From: Candidatus Aenigmatarchaeota archaeon
GTDB taxonomy: Archaea > Aenigmatarchaeota > Aenigmatarchaeia > PWEA01 > JACQIF01
Length of the DNA stretch: 64,000 nucleotides
Direction: 5' to 3'
Assembly: GCA_016432325.1 (NCBI GenBank)
Contig: CP066684.1
Location: 608,001-672,000 of the forward strand
In this document: positions 10,754-56,247 of the stretch, one piece after another
Layout of the letters: each line of letters begins with the position of its first letter
How positions within the stretch are numbered: position 1 is the stretch's first letter
The notes under the pieces: generated by a model
The model's input: the letters and a program-made list of their open reading frames with translations, nothing else
What the model was told of the DNA's origin: nothing
Database searches by the model: none
Made by a program: the position numbers and the translations under genes

Positions 10754-11560
10754 TTATTCCAATCTAGAGAGGATATCATCTATTCCCCTGAGGCCTTCGT
10801 CGATCTGGCTTCTGTATCGTTTCAGTTCAGCGACAGCCTCTTCATCCAAAACGCGCGGTCTTGGAACATCGGTTCCAAGCCTCGAAACTTCGTTTCGAGA
10901 CGTCGCAGGTTGCGCAGCAACCTTTCCGGACTCCTGTCCGGAATACTCGGAACCCCGGGTTCCGAGATGCTCTGACCTACGGCACGCACGACCACCAACG
11001 TCCGAGTACCTGCCGTCAGGCCCACAGTGCGCGTCGACGTAGAAGGGCCCGCCGACGTCGAGGCTGAGGCCCCGAAGCACGGGCCTAAAGCCTTCTTTGT
11101 CGCCCAAGAAATATGAAGCGTCCTGGCCGAACCTTGCGACCGCATCTTCTCTGTCGCCTGTTTTCGTAGGAACGCCAAGAGTAGGATGATAATCGAGTCC
11201 CCAGCCGTCTTCAGGCATTCGGACTTTCGTGCGTACGCCGCCCTCGACTTCCCAAGTGTCGCCGTCACTAACGAGACGCGCTACTTCGTGGACGTACTTG
11301 CCGTCTTCCCACGCGGTCGAGGTCCACTCGCCGCAACTGCGCTGGGCGTAAACGGCTTGTTTGAACGGTTGAGAAGTATCGAAAGCGTGGCGCAGTTGAC
11401 CAAGCGTCGGAACGCCGCGGGCTTGGTGCTCTACGGTCGTTAGATAACAACCGTTTTGCTGTGGAAACTCTATCTGGTTGGCGAGTTCGAAGGCTGGAAT
11501 GACCGTTTTACCGCCAACTATTTTAGGTTCTATGCGTAGCATCTGAAGTGATGTTGCCAT
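10754..11560 (-). CDS. Hypothetical protein with a CLec/FGE-like VR-type motif and an in-frame hairpin block; candidate DGR target
   Basis: 268-aa ORF with motif PVLRG...GPFYVDA...RYSDVGGR, a run of NNC codons, then five hairpins. Confidence 0.65.
   Translation of the reverse strand: MATSLQMLRIEPKIVGGKTVIPAFELANQIEFPQQNGCYLTTVEHQARGVPTLGQLRHAFDTSQPFKQAVYAQRSCGEWTSTAWEDGKYVHEVARLVSDGDTWEVEGGVRTKVRMPEDGWGLDYHPTLGVPTKTGDREDAVARFGQDASYFLGDKEGFRPVLRGLSLDVGGPFYVDAHCGPDGRYSDVGGRACRRSEHLGTRGSEYSGQESGKVAAQPATSRNEVSRLGTDVPRPRVLDEEAVAELKRYRSQIDEGLRGIDDILSRLE
10858..10970. repeat. Five tandem palindromic hairpins lying in frame within the CDS
   Basis: TTGGAAC/GTTCCAA, CTCGAAAC/GTTTCGAG, AGGTTGC/GCAACCT, TTCCGGA/TCCGGAA, CTCGGAAC/GTTCCGAG. 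Confidence 0.9.
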
Positions 11561-11624
11561 ACCATTTCTAACGGTAGTTAACTATTTAAGCTCGTTGGGG
11601 TTCACTACCTATCAATGAGCACGA

Positions 11625-11894
11625 TTAGCCAAGCGCCTCGTCAATCGCCTCCTTCAAATCTTCCTTTGAAGTGACGCCGACCCACTGGCGCACAATCGCC
11701 CCGTTCTTCTCCAGAATCAGAGTAGGAATCGACATCACGCCGTACTTGCCCGCCTCTTCGATATTCTCATCGACGTTTATCTCCTCGAACTTGACTTTCT
11801 TCTTGTACTCTTCCTCAAGCTCCTTGACTATCGGCGTTTGCACGCGGCAAGGACCGCACCACGGCGCCCAGAAGTCTTTGAGAGTTACCGTCAT
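11625..11894 (-). CDS. trxA: Thioredoxin
   Basis: DFWAPWCGPC and SIPT motifs. Confidence 0.95.
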   Translation of the reverse strand: MTVTLKDFWAPWCGPCRVQTPIVKELEEEYKKKVKFEEINVDENIEEAGKYGVMSIPTLILEKNGAIVRQWVGVTSKEDLKEAIDEALG

Positions 11895-11951
11895 TGATTC
11901 ACCCGAAACATAGTCCGCACTAATCGTTTATAAAAGCCGGAAACCCGGACT

Positions 11952-12260
11952 TCAGTAAGTCGCCGCGGCCTTCTCGTCCTTCTCTTCCCCGGACCCCAGC
12001 AGCTGGTTCGCTATCGGCTTGATTATCACGATGTCTCCGACGCTCTGAACCATCTGGTACGGCACTACTATTCCTCTCTTGCCGCCAAGCGACTGAGCAA
12101 GCGGCGAGCCGCGAGCTGCTTCTATCACAAGCGACTTGAGGCGGAACTTGACAAGGTCGACTTTTACGTCGGTTATCTTGCCGTAATAGTCTCCGCGGGC
12201 CGTGAAGACGTCCTTGCTAAATACTTCAGAAACGTTTTTCACGTTTACAGCCATTTCCAA
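11952..12260 (-). CDS. PRC-barrel protein (CdpB-like)
   Basis: KDVFTARGDYYGKI...IVVPYQMVQSVGDIVII pattern. Confidence 0.85.
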   Translation of the reverse strand: MEMAVNVKNVSEVFSKDVFTARGDYYGKITDVKVDLVKFRLKSLVIEAARGSPLAQSLGGKRGIVVPYQMVQSVGDIVIIKPIANQLLGSGEEKDEKAAATY

Positions 12261-12435
12261 ATTACCTCCTACTGTTTCTCTCCCTTTACAGCCAGTTCCA
12301 GTGGCTGGTTCTAATGGCCCCGGGAGATATATAAACGTTTAGCGCTTCGTGCCGTTTAAATGCGCGTGGCCGCGCGTGACGTTCGTTTGCGTTCTCCTGT
12401 TGCTTTTAAGTAACTATTCGCAAAATTAAGCTTGA

Positions 12436-12677
12436 GCTGGGGTAGCAAAGCTTGGTATGCGCCTTTTTGGGCATCTCGGAATGGAACATTCCGAGTTTTC
12501 GGACGCGGTCCGAAAACGTCCGCCCAAAAACCCGCGGGAAAAATACGCTCCCGCAAGCGACCAACTGCGCCGGATTGCTAATCCGGTGGGCGCAAGCCCG
12601 CGCGAGTTCAAGCGCCTTTTTGCTGCGGCAAAAACCCGCGGGAAAAACGGCACGAACGAATCTCGTCCCCAGCGCCA
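12436..12677 (+). tRNA. tRNA-Ser(GCT) with 2 introns: D arm ~12459-12565, T loop ~12612-12659
   Basis: GCTGGGG/CCCCAGC acceptor stem, CCGGA-TTGCTAA-TCCGG anticodon arm, long variable arm, encoded CCA, BHB pairings at both introns. Confidence 0.93.
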
Positions 12678-12807
12678 AAAGCCTTTTACGAAAAAGCTTT
12701 GGCAAGAATATGTTACGCGCGCACAGGCAGGCCGCAACCGCTTTTATATCCTAGGCCGCACGAGAGAAACATGAACTTATGGATGCCACAAACGGGGGGG
12801 GGTTCGC

Positions 12808-13989
12808 ATGAACCTCATGACTAAGGCCGTTATCGTATTTCTTCTGATTGGCGTATTGCCCGTCTCAGTACTAACGTATGTAGGCATAAGCCAGATGGAA
12901 AAGAGTTACACAGAGAGCGTCGGCACTACTCTCGAACTGTCTCTCCAGAGCGCCGTCTCCGGGCTCATAGAATATTTCCAGCGCATATTGGTCGAGACTT
13001 CCACAGACTCCAAGGACCCGGTAATCGCAAAAGAGCTGTCGGGCATAGAGGCCGGCGGTTCGCCTGCGACGCTCAACGCTCACCTGTCCAAGACGCTTAC
13101 GCGGCCGCCGGTGATTCCGACGCTCAACGCAACGCTCAAGGGAATACAGGCAGTCGTAGTCACTGACGCGAACGGCAGGATAGTCTCTTCGACTCATAAC
13201 TCGCTGATAGGCGGCGACGTGTCTCAGGAGTTCTTCTTCAAGCAGGCCGCCGGCAGCGGCGCGGGAACCAACGCGAACACCACTTACTTCACCGGAATAG
13301 TCGACCATCCGCTGGTTCTGGCCAACGCGGTCAAGGAAGACGGCAGGACAATCGGGGTATACGCCGCGGTTCACGACATCTCGGACTTGGCCAACGTCAT
13401 GCAGGGAGAGTCGAGCCGCGAACTGCTCGTCAACTCAAGAGGCGATTTGACGGCGTTCGACAACTTCGCCAATCTCGAATCTATATCGATATACGCGACC
13501 ACTGTCACCCAGACCGTATCGATAGCGCCGTCGCAGAATCCCGACCTCGTCGGCAGGACCATCGATATATACCCGGTTAACTTGTGCACGGCGGAAGGAA
13601 AGTCCTACAAGGGCGAATACGTCAACTACGACGGCATCACCGTCATCGGCGCGGTCCTCTGCGGCGCCGCGAGGACTGCATTCATCGCGGAAATTCCAAA
13701 GGACGAGGCCACGCAACCGCTCCAGAGTGCCAAACAACTCTTCCAGGGAATGGCGTTGATTATGGGAGCTCTCATAACAGTGGCTCTCTATGCGTTCCGC
13801 TCCCACATAATCAAGCCGATAGGCAGGCTGACCGAAACGATAAACAGCATCAGCATGGGCCGCTTGGACGTTGAAGTCGAGGGCAAGGAACGCAAGGACG
13901 AGATAGGCGATCTGGCGCGCGCCTTCGAACGCACCGTGGTCAGCCTCAAGCTCGCCGCGCTCGGCAAAAACAAGGAAAAAGAGAAGTGA
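12808..13989 (+). CDS. Membrane sensor: TM, Cache-like region, TM, HAMP, with no output domain
   Basis: Two TM segments; HAMP motif KPIGRL...RKDEIGDLARAF just before the stop. Confidence 0.8.
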   Translation: MNLMTKAVIVFLLIGVLPVSVLTYVGISQMEKSYTESVGTTLELSLQSAVSGLIEYFQRILVETSTDSKDPVIAKELSGIEAGGSPATLNAHLSKTLTRPPVIPTLNATLKGIQAVVVTDANGRIVSSTHNSLIGGDVSQEFFFKQAAGSGAGTNANTTYFTGIVDHPLVLANAVKEDGRTIGVYAAVHDISDLANVMQGESSRELLVNSRGDLTAFDNFANLESISIYATTVTQTVSIAPSQNPDLVGRTIDIYPVNLCTAEGKSYKGEYVNYDGITVIGAVLCGAARTAFIAEIPKDEATQPLQSAKQLFQGMALIMGALITVALYAFRSHIIKPIGRLTETINSISMGRLDVEVEGKERKDEIGDLARAFERTVVSLKLAALGKNKEKEK

Positions 13990-14204
13990 GGCCGATGGCC
14001 GCAACTTCGTCGCGGGAGTCTGTTGACAACCTTTTTCGCACCTATCTCGGCCCGATGGCAATCGTGGTTCTTCCGGACCTAGAAAAGAAGGGCCTGACAA
14101 AGGAGCGCGTGCTGTCGTACATAGACGACCTGCAGAAGAAAGGCGTCCTCGGCGCTGACTCGGCGGTCAAGTTCAAGAGGGAGATTGAGGCTGTTTTCGC
14201 GTAG
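13986..14204 (+). CDS. Small hypothetical protein coupled to the HAMP sensor gene
   Basis: Overlapping start/stop (or ATG at 13995) and plausible codon usage. Confidence 0.65.
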   Translation: MRPMAATSSRESVDNLFRTYLGPMAIVVLPDLEKKGLTKERVLSYIDDLQKKGVLGADSAVKFKREIEAVFA

Positions 14205-14476
14205 GCGTCTGCTTTAAGAAGCTTTCTACACAAGTCAGAGCGTGGTATCATGGAAGGTTATACAGGCTGCATGGATACGTCGTACGAAAAGATAGCGAAT
14301 CGCTTTGTGAGACACGGATATCCGAGCGGCGGCCCAGACCATCCGGTGCCCGACATGCCAGAGCATCTTCCTGTTCACCCGAGAGGCTATATCCCGCCAA
14401 GCGCGCAGATGGGCCCGAACCACTACTTGTGGAGGCTCTAAACAGTTTTATAGCTACTCCTTTCATTCTGCCCTAC

Positions 14477-14680
14477 GGGCCGGTAGTCTAGAAAGCTTTT
14501 CAGAAAGGCTTTAGCAAAACACGATCTGAAAGTTTGGACAATGGTTATGACGTCGCCCTATGCAAGCCGTTTCGATTGTTTGCAGACGACTACAAGGCGA
14601 AGGTCGCAAGTTCGAACCGGGCTTTTTAGAAAAAAGCACGGGTGCAAAAAACGCACGCGAGAATCTTGCCCGGCCCACCA
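14477..14680 (+). tRNA. tRNA-Val(TAC) with 3 introns: ~14492-14541 (15/16), ~14560-14590 (33/34), ~14617-14663 (59/60)
   Basis: GGGCCGG/CCGGCCC acceptor stem, TCGCC/GGCGA anticodon stem, GTTCGAA, CCA; upstream TTTATA box. Confidence 0.9.
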
Positions 14681-14715
14681 ATCCTCAATAAATACATGCA
14701 TCGATTAAACCGCTC

Positions 14716-15501
14716 ATGCTCTTCGTAGGAATCGACTTGGCGTGGTCGCCGAAGAACGGCAGCGGTCTTGCGGTGATGCGGTCCGACGGCACTTTGCAAG
14801 CGAGCGCGGTTCTGTATTCAAACGAAGAAGTTGTTGAATACGTGCACGCACAGGTTCAACAGAAGAATGCGCTGGTTGCCATAGACGCGCCGTTGGTGGT
14901 GCCGAACGAAGAAGGTCGGCGCGTCGCTGAAGCTATCGTGGGCAACCTTTTCAGAAAATACAACGCCGGCGCGCATCCTTCGAACCGCAAACGCCTGGGA
15001 CAGTGGGGAGGCCGGCCGCGCGGCGAGGTCATAACAGAGCTTCTCGGGAAGAAGGGCTTCGTCCACGACCCGTTCTTGCGGCAGCACGAAGAGTCGAGAA
15101 AGGTCTTTGAGGTCTATCCGCACCCTTCGATGGTGGTGTTGTTCAATCTCGAAACTGTCATACCGTACAAAGCGAAGCCGAAACGCAGTTACGAATCGAG
15201 ATGGAACGCTTTCGTCCAGTATCAGAAACACATGCAATCTTTGGGCAAGGCGAACCCGCCGGCGGTCCTCGGCGATATTGTAACGAAAGACGTTCGTGCG
15301 ATGAAAGGCAACGCCCTCAAGAGCTACGAGGATGCCTTGGACGCGATATTCTGCGCGTACATCGCCTACTATTACTGGTCTTTGCCGGAGAAGTGCGCCG
15401 TCCTGGGGACGATGAAAGACGGCTACATTTTAACGCCTATATTTGACCGCATGCGCGGCGCATTGAAACCCAAAGGCGTCCAGACGAAACTTACGCTCTG
15501 A
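14716..15501 (+). CDS. DUF429-like RNase H-fold nuclease
   Basis: FVGIDLAW, AIDAPL, FEVYPH and EDALDA motifs. Confidence 0.82.
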   Translation: MLFVGIDLAWSPKNGSGLAVMRSDGTLQASAVLYSNEEVVEYVHAQVQQKNALVAIDAPLVVPNEEGRRVAEAIVGNLFRKYNAGAHPSNRKRLGQWGGRPRGEVITELLGKKGFVHDPFLRQHEESRKVFEVYPHPSMVVLFNLETVIPYKAKPKRSYESRWNAFVQYQKHMQSLGKANPPAVLGDIVTKDVRAMKGNALKSYEDALDAIFCAYIAYYYWSLPEKCAVLGTMKDGYILTPIFDRMRGALKPKGVQTKLTL

Positions 15502-15970
15502 CCCATTCTCCGCGGTCGCCGTTCCTGCGTTTGTCTGCCATGGCGAGCTCGTCGAGGATACCGTCGATGAGATTGTATTTCTTCGCCTCTTCGAAAGTTA
15601 CCCAAGTGTGTTCTACGGCTTCCTCTGCCTGGAGTCTGACCTCGCCTCCTTTCCAATCGGCCATGCAGGAAATGACTATGGACGGCGAACCGTCCGCGTG
15701 TATTGTGGCCAAGCTCGTCACGTAATCAATGTTCGTTATATCCAAACCGACCTCTTCCATTACCTCGCGACGGAGCGTGCGCTCGAGAACGTTGTACCAG
15801 TATGCCTGCGTGTCTTTCGGATGCTGCGTATAGTCCGAGGTTTCGAGCTTGCCGCCCGGGACGGTCCACATGCTCGGGAAGCGTTTCTTATTCGGGTGGC
15901 GTTTTATAATCAGGTATTTCCCGTCTTTTACGACTATCGCGGTTATGACGACTTCGTGCAGATGCGACAT
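15491..15970 (-). CDS. NUDIX hydrolase
   Basis: PGGKLE...LRREVMEEVG Nudix box. Confidence 0.9.
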   Translation of the reverse strand: MSHLHEVVITAIVVKDGKYLIIKRHPNKKRFPSMWTVPGGKLETSDYTQHPKDTQAYWYNVLERTLRREVMEEVGLDITNIDYVTSLATIHADGSPSIVISCMADWKGGEVRLQAEEAVEHTWVTFEEAKKYNLIDGILDELAMADKRRNGDRGEWVRA

Positions 15971-16031
15971 GTTACTCCAGAAGTCTAGGCGATTCCTCGA
16001 TTTAAATACGCTTCGTCGTAAACGAGTCCGG

Positions 16032-16224
16032 GCTCCCATAGTCTAGACCGGCCAAGCTTCCCGCCCTTGCGGGGCAGGAAGAAGCCGAGAGGATCCCGCC
16101 CTTTCAAGTCAGACTTGAAAAACTGTAGGTTGTAAAACCAATGACATGGGCAGGCGGTGACTCGGGAAAGCCTTTTGAGAAATGCTCAAGGGCTTCGAGA
16201 CTTCAAATCCCGATGGGAGCACCA
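16032..16224 (+). tRNA. tRNA-Glu(TTC) with 3 introns: ~16055-16089, ~16107-16151 (37/38), ~16167-16201 (53/54)
   Basis: GCTCCCA/TGGGAGC acceptor stem, CCGCC-CTTTCA..A-GGCGG, TCGGG..TTCAAATCCCGA, CCA. Confidence 0.9.
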
Positions 16225-16239
16225 CTAATTTTCTGTAAA

Positions 16240-16647
16240 CTAGTAGGGGAGCCGTGGCTTCCATTGGCGCGGAACACTGCCGTAATCGATGAGAGGAATG
16301 ACGTGCCTTGCATGTATTCCGTATTCTCCGGCCACCTTTCTAACAGGACCGCTGACGTCTACGAGCGGGAATTTCTTCGCCGCAATCTTTTTAGGAACTT
16401 CCACCAACGGCTTGATAGGCAGGAACTTGCTTCCTTCCTTGGGCTTGGTGTGCAGCGCGTATGCGGGTTCTGCTGTGAAATATCCTCTGGTAATGACCTT
16501 GTCGCCTGCCCAATCCTCCCCTTCGAGAATCAGGTCTGCCAGATGAATGCGCGCTCCGTATTTCTTGTGAATCGTTGCTTCCAGCGCGTCGTATGCTCGC
16601 GCCTTTTCCATGTCGCGCGGAGGTCCCCACGCGCTTTTGGTCGCCAT
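16240..16647 (-). CDS. Hypothetical protein
   Basis: 135-aa ORF filling the gap between genes. Confidence 0.6.
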   Translation of the reverse strand: MATKSAWGPPRDMEKARAYDALEATIHKKYGARIHLADLILEGEDWAGDKVITRGYFTAEPAYALHTKPKEGSKFLPIKPLVEVPKKIAAKKFPLVDVSGPVRKVAGEYGIHARHVIPLIDYGSVPRQWKPRLPY

Positions 16648-21853: not shown

Positions 21854-22093
21854 GCGGGGGTTCCGTAGCTTGGTCAATCCCTGAACGGCATTCAAATTTC
21901 CGTTCCGGGAACGAAAAACGGGGGGGACTTAAGTTTGCCGACTTAAGTGCTGAGACACGACGTCTGTGAAAAGAAATCCCCTGGCCTAGCGCCTTCGCAG
22001 GTTCAAACCGGGCTTTCTTTAAAAAGAAAGCACGGGTGCAAAGAAACTCCGGCTTCCGCCATGATGCCGGCGAGAATCCTGCCCCCCGCACCA
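21854..22093 (+). tRNA. tRNA-Leu(TAA) with 3 introns: ~21877-21916, ~21934-21975 (37/38), ~22008-22076 (59/60)
   Basis: GCGGGGG/CCCCCGC acceptor stem, GGGGA-CTTAAG..A-TCCCC, variable arm, CCA. Confidence 0.92.
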
Positions 22094-25153: not shown

Positions 25154-25380
25154 TTGCAATGTGCTTCACGAAACAGCAGCTCTGGACCGTCGCAGCCGTG
25201 ATTTTCGGCTTGGTGACGTTGCTTCACGCCCTTCGGCTCGCCAACAACTGGGCTGCGCAGATAGGCCCTTACGTTATACCGATTTGGTTCAGCTGGATTG
25301 CTGTCGCCGTTGCAGCGTACCTCGCATACGAGTTCTGGAAGCATTCCGGAGAGAAACCGGCCAAGAAAGGAAGGAAGTAA
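25150..25380 (+). CDS. Small membrane protein
   Basis: Two TM helices, LLHALR motif. Confidence 0.7.
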   Translation: MIAMCFTKQQLWTVAAVIFGLVTLLHALRLANNWAAQIGPYVIPIWFSWIAVAVAAYLAYEFWKHSGEKPAKKGRK

Positions 25381-25424
25381 TGAAACCGTTGTTTCAAACT
25401 TTCTTCGTATGTCTCGGAAAGTAG

Positions 25425-25892
25425 TCAGCGTTCCCTGAGTCCTTTCTCCCGCGCGATGGTCTTCATGGCCTTGAGTATTCTTGCCTTGCTCACTTCGTCC
25501 GCTTTCTCGAAAACAGACCTCAACTCGTGGTCGTGCTCTTTGTAGAGCCCTGTCCAGTGCCTCTCGACACGAGACTGACTATAGTCCTGGACTTCTCCGG
25601 ACAGAGCGCCTCTCTGGTGATCGTAACCCGCGAGCTTCAGCAGCTCTTCCTTTTCGGACGGGCTGCAGCCGTAGAACTTCAGGGCGGTCGCAAGGAATTC
25701 GTAGGACGGCCTGCCGGGAACGCCGTCGTGGCCGCGGCCTGTTTCTATGTTGTATATGTGGGCTGTGGAGACTCCTACCTGTTTCGCCACGACCTCGCGC
25801 CTCATGCCCAAGTCTTCGCGCTTGACGCGCAGCAGTTTGCCTAGGCGTATCAGCTCTTTCGCATGGCGCCTGTTGTAAGCCCTGAGTCCCAT
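25425..25892 (-). CDS. XRE-family HTH regulator
   Basis: LRVKREDLGM..VAKQVGVS..HIYNIETG...PS pattern. Confidence 0.85.
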   Translation of the reverse strand: MGLRAYNRRHAKELIRLGKLLRVKREDLGMRREVVAKQVGVSTAHIYNIETGRGHDGVPGRPSYEFLATALKFYGCSPSEKEELLKLAGYDHQRGALSGEVQDYSQSRVERHWTGLYKEHDHELRSVFEKADEVSKARILKAMKTIAREKGLRER

Positions 25893-27365: not shown

Positions 27366-27594
27366 GGCTGCGGTGGTGTTAGCCTGGATAACACGCTTTT
27401 TCAAAAAGTGTGAGAAGCCAGCAAGCATGCAGGCCTGTGGTCCGAGCTTTTGAGAAAAAGCTCGAGCAAAAACGACGAAGCCACGGACAGATAGCCTGAG
27501 GGGCGAGTTCAAACCGGGCTTTTCTTTCGCAAAGAAAAGCACGGGTGCAAAAGAAACTTTTGCGCCCACCGTGAAATTCTCGCCCGCGGCCCCA
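27366..27594 (+). tRNA. tRNA-His(GTG), G-1 encoded, with 3 introns: ~27390-27423, ~27441-27492 (37/38), ~27514-27577 (59/60)
   Basis: G-GCTGCGG/CCGCGGC-C-CCA, CAGGC-CTGTGG..A-GCCTG, clean BHB helices CTGG/CCAG, CTGT/ACAG and TTCA/TGAA. Confidence 0.93.
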
Positions 27595-28507: not shown

Positions 28508-28780
28508 CTTCGCGCTCTTCAGTGCACTAAAAGCAGGGGAAGCGTACGCGAGGATCCCTGTTCTACAGCCGCGCGGCGAGCAGGCTTGAATTTCCGTACG
28601 CGAGTACGGATGATGATTGCCATCGGAAACCTTTGTTTCCGAGGCGCCGGGAACCGTGTTCCCGTGCGTCTGCATTCATGTTGCGGCTACAAGTTCCATA
28701 ATCACCACAGACGACGAGTCGGGGTGCCTGAAACTTCAAGGACGGGTTTCGTTAACGATGGGACGGATTGAATAGTTCTG

Positions 28781-28911: not shown

Positions 28912-28944
28912 GTTTCGAGATTTTCTGGTAAACAGAAAACTTGA
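28912..28944 (+). repeat. Leader hairpin shared with the 23S leader (35705-35737)
   Basis: GTTTCRAGATTTTCTGGTAAACAGAAAACTTGA, 32 of 33 nt identical. Confidence 0.92.
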
Positions 28945-29626
28945 AAACGGATTTTCAAGACAATTCCAATAGAAAGTGTGCAGTTAACTCCCAATCGAAG
29001 TTCTCGTACTGTTGATGAAATATCGTAGGACCTACTTTGAGACAGAGCGTTGTTAGGGATAACAGACGCTGGGAACATACGTTCGATTGAAATAATTCTG
29101 GTTGATCCCGCCAGAGGTCACTGCTATCTGGATCCGATTAAGACATGCTAGCCGAGTGCGAAAGCACGGCAGACGGCTCAGTAACACGTAGTCAACCTGC
29201 CCTCAGGTAGGGGATAACCCCGCGAAAGTGGGACTAACACCCTATGGGGAAAAGATACTGGAATGTTCTTTTCCTGAAAGGCAACGCCTGAGGATGGGAC
29301 TGCGGCGGATTAGGCTGTTGTTGGGGTAAAGGCCCAACAAACCTATAATCCGTACGGGCGTTGAGAGACGTAGCCCGGAGATGGGCTCTGAGACAAGAGC
29401 CCAGGCCCTACGGGGCGCAGCAGTCGCGAAACCTTTACAATGGCTTCACGGCCGATAGGGGGATCCAGAGTGAGTGCGCAATGCGTACTCTTTTGCCGAG
29501 TCTAAACAGCTCGGAGAATAAGGGGTGGGCAATACGAGTGCCAGCCGCCATCTTGCGTAGGACGGAAACTTTTCCGCCCTTGCGGGACGGAAAACGGTAA
29601 TACTCGAGCCCCGAGTGGTGACCACG

Positions 29627-29657: not shown

Positions 29658-30340
29658 GGACAAGTTCCTAGTGAAATCCTGCGTTAAACGCGGGGCGTGC
29701 TGGGAAGACTGTCCGGCTTGGGACCGGGAGACGTTAGCAGTACTCCAGGGGTAAGGGTAAAATCTTATCATCCTTGGAGGACTACCTGTGGCGAAGGCGG
29801 CTAACGAGAACGGCTCCGACGGTGAGGGACGAAAGCGTGGGGAGCAAATGGGATTAGATACCCCAGTAGTCCACGCTGTAAACGATGCCCCCTTGATGTC
29901 GCGTCTTCTTCGGGAAGACGCGGTGTCGTAGAGTAGTTGTTAAGGGGGCCGCCTGGGGAGTACGGCCGCAAGGTTGAAACTCAGCAGAACGTTCGTTCTG
30001 AACGTTCGTTGCGAGCAACGAACTTAAGGGAATTGGCGGGGGAGCACTTCAAGGGGTGGAGGCTGCGGTTCAATTGGATTCAACGCCAGACATTTTACCA
30101 GGGGTGACAGCAGGATGAAGGTCAGTCTGAAGGGCTTACCTGACGCGCTGAGAGGAGTTGCATGGCCATCGTCAGCTCGTACCGTGAGGCGTGCGCTTAA
30201 GTGCGTTAACGAGCGAGACCCACGCCCTCTGTTGCTATCTTGTCCTCCGGGATGAGAGCACTCTGAGGGGACCGCCGGCGATAAGTCGGAGGAAGGAGTG
30301 GGCGACGGTAGGTCCGTATGGCCCGAATCTCCTGGGCTAC

Positions 30341-30862
30341 ACCGAGTCCAGGCTAGCGAGGAAGAGCAAATGTTTTGGAACGAAAGTTTCAGGATACGTT
30401 GAACCGTTTTTGATTGTGCTAACGGCATGCTACTTACGAAAGTAATAGTATATCCGTCACGCACAAACCTTTACATGAACCCTGATTTAGCATATCTGAT
30501 AGGTCTCATCGGAGGCGACGGTTCGCTGACTTACAAGAAAGGAAGCGAATACCGTGTCTCAGTCGTTGACGAGTGCTTGGAATTTCATGAGCACGTCGTC
30601 AAACCTACAATGGATGCGACTTTCAACAAAGCCGCGTACGAATATCCGCGCGTCGCTCTGCAGGTTGCAAACAGTGGTATCAGAAACGAATTGGTCGAAC
30701 TTCTGAAGAGGTTTGGCATCGCACCGAGCGTTTGGAAGTACAAGCAAATGTTCGGTTTGCAAATAATCGGTTTCGATAAGGTTAGGCTGTATTCAGAGAA
30801 TGTCGGTTTTCGGCATCCCTCGAAACAGAAACGGTTGCTCGAGCTGCTTGGCTTGGGGCCTA
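30341..30862 (+). mobile_element. BHB intron (522 nt) in 16S rRNA carrying a LAGLIDADG homing endonuclease ORF
   Basis: GGCT/GGCC central helix with two 3-nt bulges; removal restores GGGCTACACGCGG. Confidence 0.9.
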
Positions 30863-30945
30863 ACGCGGCCTACAATGACCCGGACAAAGAGTTGCCACGC
30901 CGAAAGGCGGAGCCAATCTCTAAACCGGGCCTTAGTTCGGATTGA
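30427..30945 (+). CDS. Intron-encoded LAGLIDADG endonuclease, probably degenerate; no stop codon within the linear intron
   Basis: LAYLIGLIGGDGSL motif; the genomic ORF runs on into the 16S exon. Confidence 0.8.
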   Translation: MLLTKVIVYPSRTNLYMNPDLAYLIGLIGGDGSLTYKKGSEYRVSVVDECLEFHEHVVKPTMDATFNKAAYEYPRVALQVANSGIRNELVELLKRFGIAPSVWKYKQMFGLQIIGFDKVRLYSENVGFRHPSKQKRLLELLGLGPNAAYNDPDKELPRRKAEPISKPGLSSD

Positions 30946-32901: not shown

Positions 32902-33118
32902 GGGCCGGTGGTCTAGTGGAAGCGCCTTTTTGCCGCGGCAAAAACCCGCGGGAAATCCGCTGACGCCACAATGACGTCTGCTTTGCATTCGCGAAACTTC
33001 GAAATGAAGTTTCGTACGCACAAAACAGCAGAAGGCCGTGGGTTCAAAGGCAAACGCCTGCGTTTGCATTCCGGGTTCGCCTGTGAATTCAACGCCGAAA
33101 TTCCCACCCGGTCCACCA
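32902..33118 (+). tRNA. tRNA-Ala(TGC) with 3 introns: ~32922-32971, ~32988-33026 (37/38), ~33049-33101
   Basis: GGGCCGG/CCGGTCC acceptor stem with G3:U70, TCTGC-TTTGCA..A-GCAGA, CCA. Confidence 0.92.
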
Positions 33119-33130
33119 ATATTTTAAAAC

Positions 33131-33207
33131 GTGGACCTTCGAATGAAATTCGAAAACTTCGAACCGCCGTTCGAAGACCTTTGAAACCGCAGTTTCGTTG
33201 GGTCCAC
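33131..33207. repeat. Multi-hairpin palindromic element
   Basis: GTGGACC/GGTCCAC outer stem enclosing TTCGAA-type hairpins. Confidence 0.75.
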
Positions 33208-33244
33208 CACCATTGTTATATAATCTGTTCGGTAAAGTGATATC

Positions 33245-35099: not shown

Positions 35100-35794
35100 T
35101 GCAAACCAAGAATTGGAAGCATAATAGGGTCTTGTCTGCGGAAGAGTCGTCCCGACTCGCCCAACCGCAAACATATCAGAGTACCCGGCTGAAGTGACTG
35201 TTCGGTCGCGGTGTGTTGAAAAGGACAAGATGTGTTTTCTAGACCCTGATGGTTTCGGGAAGAGAGTTAGCAAGATAGAGAAAGTTAGCTATGCCGTTTG
35301 AATATGCAAAACGCTTCTGTGAGAAGCGCGCATCTAAAACGGCCCAATAACAAGTTCGGATCCCGACCACAAGTCGGGGTTTTAGGCTGAAAAGACAGCG
35401 ATGATCGCAAAATCGTAAGTATGTTACTTACGGGGTCTGAGAGTTGTCGGGAACATAGGCGACAGTGAGTATGTGAATACCCAAAGACCGTGCCTTCTTC
35501 CGCCATCAAGGTGGAAGACTAACCGATTGTGGAATCGTTGGAAAGCGCGGGATGATTGTTTAGGAAATGATACGAGTCGCAAAACTGCTTCGCAGCAGTC
35601 TGGCTGATACCTCTGCCAGTTGCGTGGAACGCGCGATGTTCCGCTTGAAGTTCCTCATTATTCGTAAAGATGACGCCGTGCAAAGGTCCCATATTGAAAC
35701 ACAGGTTTCAAGATTTTCTGGTAAACAGAAAACTTGAGACAAGGTTTCAAGAAAAACACTTGAACAAATCAAGGTTCGATAGACCATGTTCGTA

Positions 35795-40948: not shown

Positions 40949-41478
40949 GGTGTGCCGGCGAGCGACTACCGGTGCGTTAGAATCACGAAGTTCCGGGTAA
41001 CACCGGGGCTAGTGTTGAGCACTGAGGAAGGTCCGCCCACCCGAGAAAGGCGCAGCGTGGAAACACGCCGTCCCGCGAGGGACGACTTGGTATCAGAAAC
41101 GGATTGGCACGGATTCGGGATGACCTCCGGCGACTATGTCTCCGCCGCCAAATGAAACGGACCAAGAGCGTGTACGGAAACTGCGGTTTCCGACACATCG
41201 GAAAGCACGGCTTTCCGAATGCTGGTGCAAGGCCAAGTAGGCCCTGATGAGGTTACGAAGGGCGGGTAGGCTGCTGTTTCCGTGCGCAAGCGCGGAAAAC
41301 TCGGAGGCGCAAGCCTTCGCAGAAGATGAATGTCGCATGGGCCTCCTGTGATGCGCGGAGTTGGCCGCGGTTCGAAACTGCGGCGAGCTGCTGCGCAGAG
41401 GGCCCTAACACAAGGTGGACTACGTCCGTTTTCGGGGGAAACCCCGAAAAGCCGGGGCCGCAAGGCCCCGCGCACACC
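40949..41478 (+). ncRNA. rnpB: RNase P RNA, ~530 nt with several hairpin insertions
   Basis: GAGGAAGGTCCGCC / AACACAAGGTGGACT P4 pairing, CAGAAA, GAAAC, GGTGCAA and GATGAATG motifs; terminal GGTGTGC/GCACACC stem; upstream TATTTAAG. Confidence 0.9.
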
Positions 41479-44671: not shown

Positions 44672-44785
44672 CGCACGGGAAGCGAGGCTTCCCGGCGTGT
44701 CGAAACCCTAGGGTTTCGTACATCCATAAAGGCTTTCATTCGGAAGCGAAGCTTCCGATGTGCCGGAACTTCGTTCCGTGCATGC
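44672..44785. repeat. Two tandem double-hairpin elements between convergent genes
   Basis: CGGGAAGC/GCTTCCCG, CGAAACC/GGTTTCG, TCGGAAGC/GCTTCCGA, CGGAAC/GTTCCG; same linkers as the RNase P insert at 41171-41221. Confidence 0.85.
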
Positions 44786-45293: not shown

Positions 45294-45497
45294 TCATCGT
45301 TTGGCCACCAGTTTTATATCGTCTTCTTTCACTGTCACGCGGCCCGCATGCTTCGCGGCCACCGAGGCGTCTTTGGCCATCGCATCCGCGACTTCTTCAA
45401 CGTATTCGCGCAGCTCTTCGACGGCTTTGTCCGAGATGCGTTTCGCGCCTGCCTTCTTCGCGATGCGCTTGAGCGGCGCTAACGGCAAGAGAGTCAT
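45294..45497 (-). CDS. Archaeal histone (HMf family)
   Basis: LPLAPLKRI.K.AGA.RIS...KHAGRVTVKEDDI. Confidence 0.95.
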   Translation of the reverse strand: MTLLPLAPLKRIAKKAGAKRISDKAVEELREYVEEVADAMAKDASVAAKHAGRVTVKEDDIKLVAKR

Positions 45498-45626
45498 TTA
45501 CTGGTCCCTCTTCGAGTCTCTGAGTGTACGGGAAGCGATACTTCCCGACATATCGAAACCTCGTTTCGTACACGGTAAATTCATAGAACCAGAAACGACT
45601 TTGGAGAACACGTATATAAGCGTTGC

Positions 45627-50225: not shown

Positions 50226-50368
50226 AGGGATGTCTTTGCCTTACTGGGTAATAAAGTTTCCTTACCACTGCAGTGGTGATGCCTCGCTTTCCATACCGCT
50301 GTCCTTTCCGCGCTTACCACCGCGGTGGTCGTGCATGTTATTTATAGGAGCGCCGCGAATGTGCGGGC

Positions 50369-51379: not shown

Positions 51380-51397
51380 CGCGCACGGCGCGATACC

Positions 51398-51516
51398 TAG
51401 CGGAATAATGAAACAGCGGCTTCAACAGCCGTTATTTCATAATGGCATAGCGGCAACCCATAACTGCGGTTCCAGTAGCCGCCCTTGTAACGGAATAGCG
51501 GCATGGTGCTATGGAA
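51398..51516. promoter_or_regulatory. Array of TARCGG(A/C)A-like sites upstream of radA
   Basis: Copies at 51398, 51414, 51440, 51448, 51488 and 51496; an inverted copy at 51429. Confidence 0.5.
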
Positions 51517-51561
51517 AGCGTTGACTAGGCATTTCCGCAAGTTAGCAGAGAGGCGAAATGG

Positions 51562-52656
51562 ATGGTAAAAAAGAAACAGTCTGATATTGAATCTGTCGGA
51601 GCGGCTCTCGAGATGCCGACACAGGACCCGAAAGCGGGACTGGAAGTACAAATAGCAGAAAAACCAATGGAAAGCGTGGATGACATTGAGGTTGAAGTTT
51701 CTTCGAAGAAACGGATAACAGACATAGCAGACCTTCCCGGCGTGGGGGATAAGACAGCCGCGAAGCTGCGCGAGCAAGGCTACGAGGACATGATGTCGCT
51801 CGCGGCGGCGTCCGCAGCGGAGCTTGGCGAGAAGGCGGATGTAGGCGAAGCGACAGCCTCAAAGATCATACAGGCCGCGCGCGACGCGCTTGACATGGGC
51901 TTTGAAACGGCGCACGATTTTGCCAAGAAGCGCGCCTTGATAGGCAAGATTGGAACCGGTTCTAACTCTCTGAACACGTTGATAGGAGGCGGCGTCGAGA
52001 CCCAAGCCATAACGGAAGCGCACGGCGCATTTGGTTCCTCAAAATCGCAGCTCGGCTTCCAGCTCTGCGTCAACGTGCAGCTGCCACAGGAACGCGGAGG
52101 TCTGGGCAAGAACGCCGTGCTGATTGACACGGAGGGAACGTTCCGCCCAGAACGCATCAAGCAGATGGCCGAAGCGCTGGGGATGGATCCCGAGGTTGCT
52201 CTGAAGAACGTTTTTGTCGCGAGAGCGTACAACAGCGACCACCAGATTCTTCTCGTTGAGAAGCTTGGCGACATGATAAAGAAGCACAACATCGGTCTGG
52301 TCGTTATAGACTCCGTGACGTCTCATTTCCGTTCCGATTACACGGGACGCGGAACGCTGGCGAATCGACAGCAGAAGCTCAACAAGCATTTGCACGCGCT
52401 GCAGAGGCTCGCTGACGTTCACAACGTCGCCATCTACATGACCAACCAAGTGATGTCGCGCCCGGACGTGCTGTTCGGCGATCCGACAGCGCCGGTAGGC
52501 GGTCACGTTCTGGGACACTTGGCGACATACCGCCTGTATTTCAGGCACAGTAAAGGCGAGAAGCGCGTGGCGAAACTTATAGACTCTCCTTACCTGCCGG
52601 AGGGCGAAGCCGTCTTCATGGTAAAGCCGGAGGGCATACGGGACTCTGAAGAATGA
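51562..52656 (+). CDS. radA: DNA repair and recombination protein RadA
   Basis: DLPGVG HhH, GGGVETQ, IDTEGTFRPER and RQQKLN motifs. Confidence 0.97.
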   Translation: MVKKKQSDIESVGAALEMPTQDPKAGLEVQIAEKPMESVDDIEVEVSSKKRITDIADLPGVGDKTAAKLREQGYEDMMSLAAASAAELGEKADVGEATASKIIQAARDALDMGFETAHDFAKKRALIGKIGTGSNSLNTLIGGGVETQAITEAHGAFGSSKSQLGFQLCVNVQLPQERGGLGKNAVLIDTEGTFRPERIKQMAEALGMDPEVALKNVFVARAYNSDHQILLVEKLGDMIKKHNIGLVVIDSVTSHFRSDYTGRGTLANRQQKLNKHLHALQRLADVHNVAIYMTNQVMSRPDVLFGDPTAPVGGHVLGHLATYRLYFRHSKGEKRVAKLIDSPYLPEGEAVFMVKPEGIRDSEE

Positions 52657-52665
52657 GGCGGCTTC

Positions 52666-52842
52666 ATGGACGCGAAGACAAGGACCACGTTCCTTTCCCT
52701 TTCCATGTTCCTCGGCTTCCTGCTCCTCGTACTGGGAGCGACATCGTACTCGACCGCCTGCACCGGAGGATATGCTTGTACGCCGGTCCTGATGCTCGTC
52801 GTCGGCCTCGTTCTTCTCTACGTGTCAATAAGCCTGAAATAG
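52666..52842 (+). CDS. Small 2-TM protein, absent from the ORF track
   Basis: 58 aa, MDAKTRTTFLSLSMFLG... Confidence 0.55.
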   Translation: MDAKTRTTFLSLSMFLGFLLLVLGATSYSTACTGGYACTPVLMLVVGLVLLYVSISLK

Positions 52843-53112
52843 GTGAGGACTGTGGACAGGCTGCAGGTCAAAAAGAACGTCCTCGACATCCGGGAAAGAA
52901 CCCACAGGCTCTATTTCACGACGCAGGCGCTGGCCTCGATAATAATGCTGTCTGTTATAGTTACGCTGTTGCTTACGGTCTCGCCGACGAGCCAATACTA
53001 CGTTCTCCTTCAGGTTTCCGTAGTCCCGTCAGCGATTCTGCTTTACAACTCGTTTGAACACAAGAAGATGGCAGACGAAACAATCGAGAAGATAGAGGGG
53101 CTCGTCGAATAA
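52843..53112 (+). CDS. Small 2-TM protein
   Basis: KNVLD motif followed by two hydrophobic helices. Confidence 0.6.
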   Translation: MRTVDRLQVKKNVLDIRERTHRLYFTTQALASIIMLSVIVTLLLTVSPTSQYYVLLQVSVVPSAILLYNSFEHKKMADETIEKIEGLVE

Positions 53113-53118
53113 GCCGTG

Positions 53119-53382
53119 TTAGAGAAATCTTGTCGTGAGAAGCCCGGCGTGCATCGGATCGGCCTTTAGTTTCGTTGTTTTGAAGTTTTCAGGAGCTATC
53201 GGAGGGCCTCGTTTGAAGCCGTCATAAGATGTGAGAGCTCCCATGTCGTCCATGAACATTGCTCTGGGCGCGCCGTCTTCGGGAAACGCGTCCTTTTTTA
53301 CGGCCACGGAGTATTTGCCGTTTCTATCGAGTCCGATGTAGACTATTTCGTTCTCTCTTTCTTCAGACTTCTCGAGGTGCAT
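53119..53382 (-). CDS. Hypothetical protein
   Basis: 87-aa ORF. Confidence 0.55.
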   Translation of the reverse strand: MHLEKSEERENEIVYIGLDRNGKYSVAVKKDAFPEDGAPRAMFMDDMGALTSYDGFKRGPPIAPENFKTTKLKADPMHAGLLTTRFL

Positions 53383-53414
53383 ATGAGTTCCCGTTTGCTC
53401 TCGCGTGTCCCTTT

Positions 53415-53684
53415 CTAGATGATGTCTTTCTCGGCGACTATGATGAAGTCACCGACGCTCTTCACGGCAGAGAACGGCACCAGGAATCTTCCGCGCTCGT
53501 CGGACTGCAGATTCGTGTCCACGGCGTGCTTGGTCGGCTCCCTGAGCACCAGGTTCATGAGTTCTCCGCTCTCTGTTATGAACGAGATGTCTTCAACCAT
53601 GCCGAACTTGCGTCCTGCCTCTTCGCCGACCACGGTCTTTCCCATCAGGTCGCGTCCTCTCACGTCTTCAGCTCGCAAAACCAT
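53415..53684 (-). CDS. PRC-barrel protein (CdpB-like)
   Basis: LMGKTVV...G.VEDI...VPFSAVKSVGDFIIV pattern. Confidence 0.88.
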   Translation of the reverse strand: MVLRAEDVRGRDLMGKTVVGEEAGRKFGMVEDISFITESGELMNLVLREPTKHAVDTNLQSDERGRFLVPFSAVKSVGDFIIVAEKDII

Positions 53685-53774
53685 TTTTAAATCACCCTTT
53701 GTCGTACGCTCGTGCTTCTGCTATGCATTATTCTCGTATATAACCTTTCCCCTCACACGGCGGCAGCCTTGGCC

Positions 53775-54260
53775 CTACGACCGGGATACGCTTGACTTAA
53801 TCCCCAACACCTCGGCTAGGGTGGGATGGGAATAATATGCAATAACGTCGAAAGACGAATCGACCAACTCGAGCATTTCCATGTTCCTGCGTTTGATGAG
53901 AGCAAAACCCGGCTTGCCCAAGCATGTCTTCTTAAATGCTTGGTAATTCGAAACTGTGAAATCCGCATCTCCTCGCTCGGGCCGTTTCGTATCTGGGCGC
54001 CGGATTTTCAATAAACCAAGGTCGCCTGCGTCCGTGGAGAGCGGGACGATTTGGAAGACTGGGCCCGTTGATGTGTCGTCGACGACAGGACCCATCTGGC
54101 GAGCCAGATTGAGCATATCCTCATATTCGGATTGGCTCTGAGTGAAGATGCACGCATAATTGACAGGTGCGTCGCGTTCGCTCGTGTGTTTTGCACTCAA
54201 CAGGCATGCCTGAGCAACGATTTCTTGTATCAACTTCTTCATATCTACTATGTCCATCAT
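53775..54260 (-). CDS. Hypothetical protein (possibly VOC/glyoxalase-like)
   Basis: 161-aa ORF with NYACIF and LLKIRRPD..RPERGDADF. Confidence 0.65.
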   Translation of the reverse strand: MMDIVDMKKLIQEIVAQACLLSAKHTSERDAPVNYACIFTQSQSEYEDMLNLARQMGPVVDDTSTGPVFQIVPLSTDAGDLGLLKIRRPDTKRPERGDADFTVSNYQAFKKTCLGKPGFALIKRRNMEMLELVDSSFDVIAYYSHPTLAEVLGIKSSVSRS

Positions 54261-54297
54261 GCCTCTCCTCCTTACGCTCCGCGTTCAATCTGTACAA

Positions 54298-55011
54298 TCA
54301 TATCGTCAGCAACTGCTCAATGTAGAGGTCGACTCCCCAGTTCATCAGCACGACCGCCAGCAGGCCGGCGAACAGTGTGGCCGCGACGTTGACTTCTGTC
54401 TTGCCCACGAGCCCGCGGCGCTCTATGGTCGCTCCGAGCACCGAATCGAACTGGCTTCCTAGGAAACCGCATAAGAGGATTGTGAGTATTGTTCCGGCGG
54501 ACGAAATTCCTATCAACGGCGAGAGCGCCGCGACGCCCGCCGCGGCCAATAATGAGACGAGTTCTCCGAGAAGAGACACTCCTCCATCGGTTCCCGGAGG
54601 CACCTTCCGCAGCGTAGTGATAAGTCTCACATTCTTGTCCAGAACGCCTATTTCGCTGGCCAGATTGTCCGCAACCGCAGCGGCCACAGCAGCCAGGAAC
54701 CCGACAGGCGAATCGAAGACCACGAAGAGGAGAGGCGCGTATGCCGAACCCATCACGTTTTCTATCGAGCGCTTGCCCTTCCGCGCTTCTGCCGTGCCGG
54801 CCTTTTCCTTGTGACCGTACTTCCAGCGCGTGGCCGCGGCGCTGATGAAGAAGAACGCGAGCAGCACGAGCAGCCACTTGAAGCCGCGGAACTGCCATAT
54901 CAGGACGGCTATGAGAAACGCGCCGGCCGCCCCGTGCGGGGTCAGGAGCCTGAGTTTCCATATGGTTATGGCCAACGCCGCGCACGCGGCCACAATATAT
55001 GCAATCTCCAT
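54298..55011 (-). CDS. DUF92/TMEM19 membrane protein
   Basis: ADNLASEIG, VPPGTDGGVS and DSVLGAT motifs. Confidence 0.92.
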   Translation of the reverse strand: MEIAYIVAACAALAITIWKLRLLTPHGAAGAFLIAVLIWQFRGFKWLLVLLAFFFISAAATRWKYGHKEKAGTAEARKGKRSIENVMGSAYAPLLFVVFDSPVGFLAAVAAAVADNLASEIGVLDKNVRLITTLRKVPPGTDGGVSLLGELVSLLAAAGVAALSPLIGISSAGTILTILLCGFLGSQFDSVLGATIERRGLVGKTEVNVAATLFAGLLAVVLMNWGVDLYIEQLLTI

Positions 55012-55015
55012 ACCA

Positions 55016-55561
55016 TCACATTAAGAGTTTCCTTATGAATTTCCCGAACTCCCTGCGAAACGTAGCCTCGTCCATGCCCTCGGTGTCGAACGCATGGTCC
55101 GCCTTCGATATCAGCCGGCCGAGTCCCCGAGCGTTTTCCACCTCATCGCGGGATAATAAATAGGCCTTATCCTCCTCTTCGAACCTCTTCCTCAGCAGGC
55201 AGCGCCTGAGCCTCTCGCCGAACGGAGCCTCGACGGAGATTACCACCGGCTTTACCCCGGCCAGCTCTTCGAGAATCTTCAGCTGGACGACGTCGCGCAA
55301 GCCGTCTATCGCAACAAAGTCCGTTTTCGGATTGCTTTTCAAGCGCGCCAGAACGCGTTGAACAAGCACGCGCTCGCGCCCCTTTTCATGGAACCATCCA
55401 GCGACGTCGCGGTCTGTTTCTTCTGTGTATGGCAAGCCGCGCTTCTCTATCTCTTCGCGGACGACGTCTCCGGAAGACACTGGGTCCGCGCCTAGTTCCT
55501 TACAGACGTCCAGCGCGGTCGTCTTCCCAGAGCACGGCATTCCGACAATTACGACCAGCAT
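55016..55561 (-). CDS. P-loop nucleotide kinase (archaeal dephospho-CoA kinase-like)
   Basis: GMPCSGKT, GDVVRE and IDGLR motifs. Confidence 0.85.
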   Translation of the reverse strand: MLVVIVGMPCSGKTTALDVCKELGADPVSSGDVVREEIEKRGLPYTEETDRDVAGWFHEKGRERVLVQRVLARLKSNPKTDFVAIDGLRDVVQLKILEELAGVKPVVISVEAPFGERLRRCLLRKRFEEEDKAYLLSRDEVENARGLGRLISKADHAFDTEGMDEATFRREFGKFIRKLLM

Positions 55562-55605
55562 CCAATCCCTTGCGTTTATTAGGAAAGCCTCATTTAAAAC
55601 TGGTT

Positions 55606-56046
55606 ATGCGCGGTGTCGAGCCTTATATGATAATCGCTGTGGCTTTGCTGGCGGCGCTCGCTTCGACGGGATCGCCGCTTGCTACATACGAAGGGATAGT
55701 TGACTATACGGGTATTCCTAAGACAGAACTAATACCGATACACGGATACGAGTACTATCTCGCTACAGACCAAAATGTGAGATTAAGACTCTGGGAAGAA
55801 GGCGTTCCGGAAGCCGATTACAAGATTCTCTCTCCGGCGCTTGAAGGCGCGACAGTGCGTGCGACAGGACGTCTTATCGACGACTACATGGCGTACAAAA
55901 TGAGCAAAGGCGGTCCCATCACGTCCGCAGATCCTGAAGGGACGGTTCTTCTGGTCAGCAGGATTGAGGTTCTCGAAGCGCCGCCTCGCGCGCAGGAGAA
56001 GCCGATAGTGTCCAGCGCGGCGGTTCTTGTCCTGCGCGTGGTGTGA
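55606..56046 (+). CDS. Secreted or membrane-anchored hypothetical protein
   Basis: N-terminal signal-like helix and hydrophobic C-terminus. Confidence 0.6.
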   Translation: MRGVEPYMIIAVALLAALASTGSPLATYEGIVDYTGIPKTELIPIHGYEYYLATDQNVRLRLWEEGVPEADYKILSPALEGATVRATGRLIDDYMAYKMSKGGPITSADPEGTVLLVSRIEVLEAPPRAQEKPIVSSAAVLVLRVV

Positions 56047-56152
56047 AGGGTTTGTGAACGCGGCGTGAATGGGCATACGCTGTCATATCGGCGTCCCGTG
56101 ACCATTTATTGGCAGGCAATGAATTTCCCGCCCTGTACGGAAAAGCGTTGCC

Positions 56153-56247
56153 GACATTTTCGGACGGAGTCCGAAAAGTTCGGCCCGAAGGCCGAACATG
56201 TTCGAACGCACGGCGTTCGAACTTTCCGAACAGCGTTCGGAAATGTC
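56153..56247. repeat. Four-hairpin palindromic element between convergent genes
   Basis: GACATTT/AAATGTC enclosing TTTTCGGAC/GTCCGAAAA, GTTCGGC/GCCGAAC, GTTCGAACGC/GCGTTCGAAC and TTTCCGAAC/GTTCGGAAA. Confidence 0.88.

Follow-up and report, generated by a model that had tools for sequence, protein, structure and literature searches.

The Rickettsia palindromic elements (RPE), which Ogata reportedly described in 2000 and 2002, are said to be palindromes inserted in frame in essential proteins and also in structural RNAs, and the MJRE repeats of Methanocaldococcus jannaschii, attributed to Suyama in 2005, are likewise said to be palindromic repeats lying in frame in essential proteins. We know of no mover for either. 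The mitochondrial double-hairpin elements (DHE) of chytrids and fission yeasts consist of two adjacent hairpins, occupy spacers and rRNA genes, and are patchily distributed with suspected horizontal spread and unknown mechanism (PMC10085805). Repetitive extragenic palindromes (REP), with the related BIMEs and REPINs and the REP-associated tyrosine transposase (RAYT), are non-autonomous inverted doublets that fold in single-stranded DNA (ssDNA) (PMC3116915). Here we describe folded inserts of 40 to 60 bases, of several related kinds and well over a hundred in number, in the genome of a Candidatus Aenigmatarchaeota archaeon (contig CP066684.1; 875 kb in one contig, 90% complete; hereafter the host genome, labeled G000 in genome coordinates). 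The window is the whole 64,000-nt stretch analyzed, positions 608001 to 672000 of that genome, and unlabeled coordinates refer to it. An earlier note on the window had attributed these repeats to one REP-like or MITE-like (miniature inverted-repeat transposable element) family that chains hairpins and shelters in introns and RNA loops. Literature searches returned no description of these elements in Aenigmatarchaeota, and Rfam held no family matching their modules. The sequencing runs that match the host genome are groundwater metagenomes.

Element classes and empty sites

All the motifs listed in the earlier note lie at the positions it gave, but the repeats fall into at least four classes, A, B, H, and T, with shared cores and nesting, and the idea of one family was not borne out. 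Class A (48 to 56 nt) reads TGYA-hairpin-RCATGY-hairpin-TRCA, with variants, and is a half-unit followed by its own reverse complement; the host genome has 42 halves at 29 loci, against 0 to 2 halves in controls. Class B (42 to 48 nt) is a T, two adjacent hairpins with TTCGAA-type arms, and a final A. Its detector found 31 loci in the host genome, 20 in the sister species, and 0 in the four order-5 Markov genomes that served as its chance baseline. Class H, a TGAAAC...GTTTCA hairpin found chiefly in noncoding DNA, occurs 56 times in the host genome and 4 to 5 times in controls. Class T, with 22 matches in the host genome, runs in the order pyrimidine tract, purine partner, linker of 6 to 12 nt, and mirror copy of the purine tract. 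GAAAC/GTTTC-type cores are common to A, B, and H, and among perfect hairpins with arms of at least 8 the shared core appears in 68 of 249, versus 5 to 14 of 120 to 140 in controls. T has no sequence relation to the other three, and nesting is its sole tie to them. By pairing, each A or B forms two hairpins stacked on one another, so that its 5' and 3' termini abut at a nick where one or two junction bases stay unpaired; these bases are conserved, stems covary, and loops vary. Folding z scores of single copies range from -4.7 to -7.7.

Comparisons were made with a sister species of the same genus (G001; 73% complete, taken whole, ~66% DNA identity in aligned blocks) and with a genome of a genus in another order (G045), about half of which was compared. 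Presence and absence at orthologous and paralogous sites show the elements to be mobile. In about 25 empty/filled pairs, the ends of A and B are fixed and no target duplication is seen. One such case lies in the coding sequence (CDS) at 10754 to 11560 (minus strand; 268 aa), which has a C-type-lectin-like fold and a C-terminal motif like the variable region (VR) of a diversity-generating retroelement (DGR). It carries two B modules in frame: one of 45 nt at 10923 to 10968 (minus strand, boundary ±1), in a hairpin stem just past the VR-like region, and one of 42 nt at 10859 to 10900, which the earlier note had missed and which has no target duplication. The sister ortholog lacks both and has a B of its own slightly further on, at a site that is empty in the host. 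In-frame inserts absent from orthologs were also found in a family B polymerase (54 nt), uL5 (48 nt), a 951-aa helicase-like protein (48 nt), and a 137-aa protein (48 nt), the named proteins among these having been identified from motifs, and reciprocal cases occur in the sister species (48 nt) and in G045 (51 nt). All eight clean CDS inserts (42 to 54 nt) are multiples of three, and A copies deep in open reading frames (ORFs) of other genomes keep the frame in six of seven cases. Bulge-helix-bulge (BHB) or relaxed BHB motifs were found at the ends of 0 of 14 A/B inserts. Because all eight clean inserts are in frame and the ends lack BHB motifs, A and B in coding sequences are probably translated and not spliced.

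RNase P RNA is interrupted twice, by a 51-nt A variant at 41171 to 41221 (plus strand) in the 3' strand of helix P7, with no BHB at its ends, and by a 43-nt double hairpin at 41429 to 41471 (plus strand) that splits the 3' strand of helix P1 and that the earlier note had not listed; the sister RNase P has neither. In a fold made by hand they branch off P7 and P1, and both are best read as retained in the RNA. The RNase P inserts and those at 44.7 kb were reproduced with 0 differences in a second assembly (Logan contigs), which is not independent biology, as its contigs possibly derive from the source samples. The one RNA run examined contained rRNA of other organisms only.

A and B insert in either orientation and at single sites, including sites inside other elements. 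B has entered A at its central linker, a second B at its junction, T at its loop, and also spacer elements. For A the sites are loops and stems of hairpins, among them a T loop in G045. The B shared by the tRNA-Ser intron (43 nt, 12474 to 12516, plus strand) and the minus-strand CDS, as the earlier note had observed, is in the former case nested in a T hairpin, a site that is unoccupied in the paralogous introns at other genomic locations. The second hairpin of this B recurs, as also noted, at 56157 to 56177, within an A (56134 to 56265) whose central linker holds two B modules in opposite orientation (56157 to 56198, minus; 56199 to 56243, plus). The earlier note's other A-type units were likewise recovered: a variant dumbbell in the 16S leader (28620 to 28668, minus strand), and two dumbbells (44672 to 44722 and 44735 to 44782) between convergent genes (44672 to 44782, minus strand). 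To these and the RNase P copy we add copies at 45525, 56134, and 57406, the last a degenerate A (57406 to 57457) upstream of an AAA+ gene.

H favors start codons or tRNA ends and leaves a different trace. Flanking direct repeats accompany 20 of the 56 copies and none in controls, and the duplications vary in length and come with an inverted copy of the target. If the first codons of the gene are called X, several copies run X, hairpin, X in reverse complement, a new ribosome-binding site, and X again. The sister species is empty at several of these start-codon sites. In the window, an H-class hairpin adjoins a start codon at 25378 to 25425 (minus strand); a start-codon element precedes a histone gene at 45497 to 45590 (minus strand), with an A nested at 45525 to 45572, and is absent from the sister species; and a unit at 33115 to 33210 (minus strand) duplicates the 3' end of tRNA-Ala and holds a B at 33136 to 33177.

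We asked how far the elements range by means of pattern searches, which diverged A families in other genera can escape. The strict A pattern occurred in 5 of 371 genomes and 2 of 170 genera (control, 0), namely, both genomes of the host genus and the three available for a second genus, which belongs to a different order; well-paired A copies of the second-genus type were present in 25 of 26 metagenome contigs. The junction sequence of A is conserved between the two genera, whose shared proteins have a median identity of 42%. This patchiness, together with that level of protein identity, suggests that A has spread horizontally, although the pattern search would overlook diverged A families elsewhere. 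T was found in 17 of 152 genomes from 11 genera (control, 0); most copies lie in tRNA introns, at a variety of positions, and others close to the starts of genes. For B, the pattern applied to the phylum was too stringent to be informative, with two matches even in the host genome. Viral matches to the A pattern were rejected, their fold being unlike that of A.

Several observations stand beside these. Smaller spacer families accompany the four classes: one with a central ACCACCGCGGTGGT palindrome occurs at 50296 to 50349 in the window and at G000 225489, 321104, 467590, 558608, 559079, and 582576, one copy holding an A at its apex, and a TTTAAA-ended family, with or without nested B, occurs at G000 13804, 227975, 273197, 370017, 448799, 526979, 607604, 837956, and 852914. 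The same hairpin pair precedes the 16S gene (28920 to 28965) and the separately placed 23S gene (35694 to 35745) and perhaps acts as a processing signal or represents an old H-type insert. The CDS at 10754 to 11560, which has a paralog at G000 810634 to 811240, resembles a DGR target in its C-type-lectin fold, variable-region-like end, and downstream hairpin; no DGR template repeat or reverse transcriptase (RT) was found in the host genome. The sister species encodes a DGR-type RT, split into two ORFs, and the template repeat that accompanies it corresponds to a different gene.

T modules and introns

T is the only class tied to intron architecture. tRNAs were located with our own script, which misses tRNAs with T-stem introns; ARAGORN returned no tRNA for the window, and relaxing it gave noise. 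In the tRNA-Ser gene, a T module heads the D-arm intron (12459 to 12545, plus strand; B in its hairpin loop), another occupies the T-loop intron with a relaxed BHB (12612 to 12650, plus strand), and a degenerate T directly follows the gene (12677 to 12708, plus strand). The introns of tRNA-Val(UAC) (14492 to 14655, plus strand) carry a degenerate T in the D loop and a T module in a 59/60 intron with a BHB. Further modules lie in the T-loop intron of tRNA-Leu (22009 to 22050, plus strand), in the D-loop intron of tRNA-Ala(UGC) (32920 to 32955, plus strand), and, three in number, in the introns of tRNA-His (27395 to 27560, plus strand), where the last has an asymmetric tract and an exact mirror third strand. 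The GCTTTT..AAAAGC hairpins that the earlier note had pointed out in the Val, His, and Glu introns and behind tRNA-Ser are copies of T, which has a third, mirror-image purine tract; the Glu copy is only partial. All 12 T modules that could be assigned to a tRNA are in sense orientation.

Of 24 asymmetric cases that have a third tract, 23 show it as a mirror copy (0 direct, 1 tie), a count that is partly biased, as some loci were picked by a pattern containing the mirror tract, and that includes 12 cases from unbiased sequence. This tract order, with covariation, is that of the class II intrastrand triplex motif, and we class T as a predicted purine-motif triplex. BHB or relaxed BHB motifs were found at the ends of 15 of 29 T-loop introns, compared with 0.7% of random intervals, and most of the remainder have three of four central BHB pairs. 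Most host tRNAs have several noncanonical introns with relaxed BHBs. Related introns interrupt different tRNAs at differing positions, and the set of introns varies between orthologous tRNAs. Two adjacent tRNAs (locus L095 in G001 C38, 107 to 390 and 1038 to 1329) share a near-identical intron, in the T loop of the one and the anticodon loop of the other, a direct case of intron copying. A and B leave tRNAs only as passengers of true introns, and with no BHB at their ends and the CDS frame always kept, the earlier suggestion that these elements themselves generate introns is unsupported for them; it may hold for T.

The host encodes both the splicing endonuclease EndA and the ligase RtcB. One EndA gene of ~200 aa was found (L152:1474-2079, G000 ~849.8 kb), a divergent beta subunit not having been searched for, and its named homologs are from Aenigmatarchaeota. 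Of the types of EndA, just (alpha-beta)2 and epsilon2 cut noncanonical introns with relaxed BHBs (PMC5829648). The 16S gene contains a 45-nt insertion in the 530 loop (29550 to 29594, plus strand), with an imperfect BHB by eye (three of four central pairs) and a negative BHB test, and a 43-nt intron with a perfect BHB and two hairpins inside (29978 to 30020, plus strand). Removing the former leaves an A where co-occurring organisms have a G (Escherichia coli G527 by our own numbering), and its splicing status appears ambiguous. A 13-mer common to this insertion (29574) and the D-loop intron of tRNA-Glu (16061, in the hairpin at 16052 to 16090, plus strand), reported in the earlier note, occurs exactly twice in the genome with similar flanks; being a short, post hoc match, it is the weakest of the shared items. 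A large 16S intron (30343 to 30900) has an ORF (30475 to 30945) that may be a degraded homing endonuclease.

Candidate routes of movement

On balance, and without great confidence, we favor the reading that these micro-elements make up several related families, all non-autonomous, whose copies spread in the form of folded ssDNA and are joined to their targets by one strand exchange. A nicked A or B dumbbell would be closed into a circle of ~50 nt, or copied from an extruded strand, and the circle or copy would be joined into a single-stranded target in a single exchange. The joining enzyme would not be a known transposase of the host; it could be a HUH-type nickase acting in trans or host enzymes that nick and ligate. 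Selection would then leave the harmless copies: in frame in loops and ends of proteins, in side branches of RNA helices, in spacers, and in BHB introns. H would add a stem copied from its target, by which a start codon or tRNA end that is hit would be restored, and T would persist at the head of tRNA introns because its exon-complementary tail would allow removal by EndA. Among the A copies of the second genus and the metagenomes, one variant of which has a GCGGAGC linker, GNA or its complement accounts for 33 of 43 triloops. GNA mini-hairpins have a DNA-specific stability and are much weaker as RNA (PMC13037366), and purine-motif triplexes form in DNA and not in RNA (PMC4666352). These triloops, the predicted triplex of T, and the two head-to-head B modules within one linker (56157 to 56243) together favor a folded ssDNA intermediate.

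Other results weigh against this reading. In the host, enrichment of GNA is not significant among B copies (12 of 50, P = 0.12) and weak among A copies, and the GNA P value is overstated since the copies are related. Part of the mirror-tract count is biased, as stated above, and the uniform sense orientation of T is also what a route through RNA predicts. Nesting counts are not independent events, as some composites (A plus B, E plus B, and whole introns) probably spread as units. No strain-level presence or absence was seen in 19.5 kb, and since the copies have also diverged, present activity is not demonstrated. We saw no element circle, junction read, or moving enzyme. We think it improbable that the elements amount to a still larger novelty, namely, an undescribed class of mobile DNA made of covalently closed ssDNA dumbbells of ~50 nt and triplex-capped relatives, which would integrate by single-strand exchange with no transposase gene of their own kind, would cross from one DPANN lineage to another far removed, and would be the source of new BHB introns.

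Organellar palindromes have been proposed to arise by template switching during replication, with hairpins patching one another in the manner of gene conversion. Such movement without any dedicated mover is to our minds unlikely for the whole set here yet suits H well, since the direct and inverted copies of its own target are a classic trace of fold-back synthesis. The absence of a transposase family from the Y1 and TnpB searches and the perfect pairing of stems that differ in every copy, with hairpin halves shuffled between copies, also speak for it. However, the ends of A and B are fixed and their targets unrelated, with neither homology nor duplication, and template switching does not readily account for a junction sequence kept between genera so diverged in their proteins. 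A somewhat smaller chance goes to a route in which EndA and RtcB cut released intron RNAs and ligate them into other RNAs, after which an RT, such as that of a DGR, makes DNA that recombines into the chromosome, an extension of Thermoproteales-type intron transposition to mRNAs and RNase P. The two enzymes are present, the sister species has an RT of this type, T is always in sense, and the distribution of introns among tRNAs agrees with it, so that it may apply to whole tRNA introns. Against it stand the absence of an RT from the host genome, the DNA-type loops and triplex, and the A and B modules themselves, which have no BHB ends, lie in both orientations, and keep the frame.

Still less probable is that the elements are domesticated RNA modules, such as leader regulators or intron stabilizers, held by selection. 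H does cluster at start codons, with one copy at a uS4-like gene common to the host and its sister, and T spans 11 genera, but most sites are empty in the sister species, and essential proteins and RNase P helices are interrupted at unrelated places. We give practically no credence to chance hairpins or an assembly artifact: the motifs are short and the 13-mer was matched after the fact, yet controls are near zero, another assembler and other species reproduce the elements, and the empty/filled pairs refute it. The earlier note's central proposal of mobile, non-autonomous palindromes that chain hairpins and shelter in introns and RNA helices therefore holds, with similarity far above controls and filled sites matched by empty ones; it had set these two comparisons beforehand as ones that could overturn mobility, and neither did.

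The earlier note saw no mobilizing enzyme in the window, and Y1 transposase (PF01797), TnpB (above cutoff), and RT were not found anywhere in the host genome. Y1 was also absent from the sister genome and present in six unrelated relatives. A Rep_1 search returned no match in any genome and is hence uninformative. No DDE transposase was among the proteins shared with the compared half of G045, no search having been aimed at DDE families; those shared proteins comprised housekeeping genes and two cargo genes only. The cargo genes (G000 781.8 to 782.7 kb) are 59 to 70% identical to their G045 counterparts, above the 42% median. Two tRNA-integrated elements (G000 277 to 290 kb and 777 to 784 kb) encode tyrosine integrases of ~395 aa, which were rejected as movers because they belong to ordinary elements of that kind. 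A MuB/TnsC-like AAA+ gene (56298 to 57398), flanked by two A copies, was also rejected, as it is single copy in 33 of 48 genomes of the phylum and thus not specific. This AAA+/winged helix-turn-helix gene has a PHROG match to "DNA transposition protein," stands beside TTCAC and TGTGAGAG arrays, and lies near the minimum of third-position GC skew; the region (56298 to 58130) is possibly a replication origin with a non-Orc1 initiator. GC skew of the host genome is too flat for a strand-bias comparison.

Comparison with known systems

The closest published kin, by analogy, would be the RPE and MJRE palindromes, the mitochondrial DHE, and the REPINs. Like RPE and MJRE, A and B are palindromes that lie in frame in conserved proteins and are absent from orthologs, in eight clean cases here; unlike them, A and B are two-hairpin units of 42 to 56 nt with abutting ends, in several nesting classes and with a tie to BHB introns, a likeness drawn from descriptions only. 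DHE share the two adjacent hairpins and the presence or absence between relatives but belong to another compartment, which makes the resemblance an analogy and not membership, whereas A and B reside on an archaeal chromosome, in frame in proteins, with stems that diverge by covariation and nest in Russian-doll fashion. A also resembles REPINs in being a non-autonomous inverted doublet of a half-unit with an ssDNA hairpin fold. It differs in that the PF01797 search found no Y1/RAYT in the host genus, copies occur in coding sequences, RNase P, and introns and not in extragenic DNA only, and no conserved guide tetranucleotide or target was seen. The earlier comparison with REP and MITE stands as an analogy only, there being neither a Y1/RAYT in the host or its sister nor, as there would be for MITEs, a target-site duplication of A or B in the empty/filled pairs. 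Nor do the elements resemble retroelements such as short interspersed elements, with no RT in the host and neither tail nor duplication at A or B.

In Thermoproteales, tRNA intron transposition is described (Fujishima 2010, as cited in PMC4033280) as related introns shared across tRNAs and positions, many at 59/60 and with relaxed BHBs. Host introns agree in all these respects, but they are built of modules that also occur outside tRNA genes, and EndA was found as one gene of ~200 aa. T follows the order of pyrimidine, purine, and mirror purine tracts of the class II intrastrand triplex motifs BoxC, PIT, and TM-ECO (PMC4666352), from which it differs in being A/T rich, archaeal, and placed at the head of tRNA introns, its triplex being a prediction. 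How archaeal tRNA introns arrive was called open in a 2026 preprint (10.64898/2026.10.13.758758), and the elements may show how such introns are seeded. In this reduced genome, core proteins evidently tolerate inserts of 14 to 18 residues, and RNase P RNA inserts of 43 to 51 nt. The host genus makes testable both the movers of RPE, MJRE, and DHE and the origin of tRNA introns, as its empty/filled pairs are many and exact, the element ends are fixed, a circle junction can be predicted, and the distribution covers two genera.

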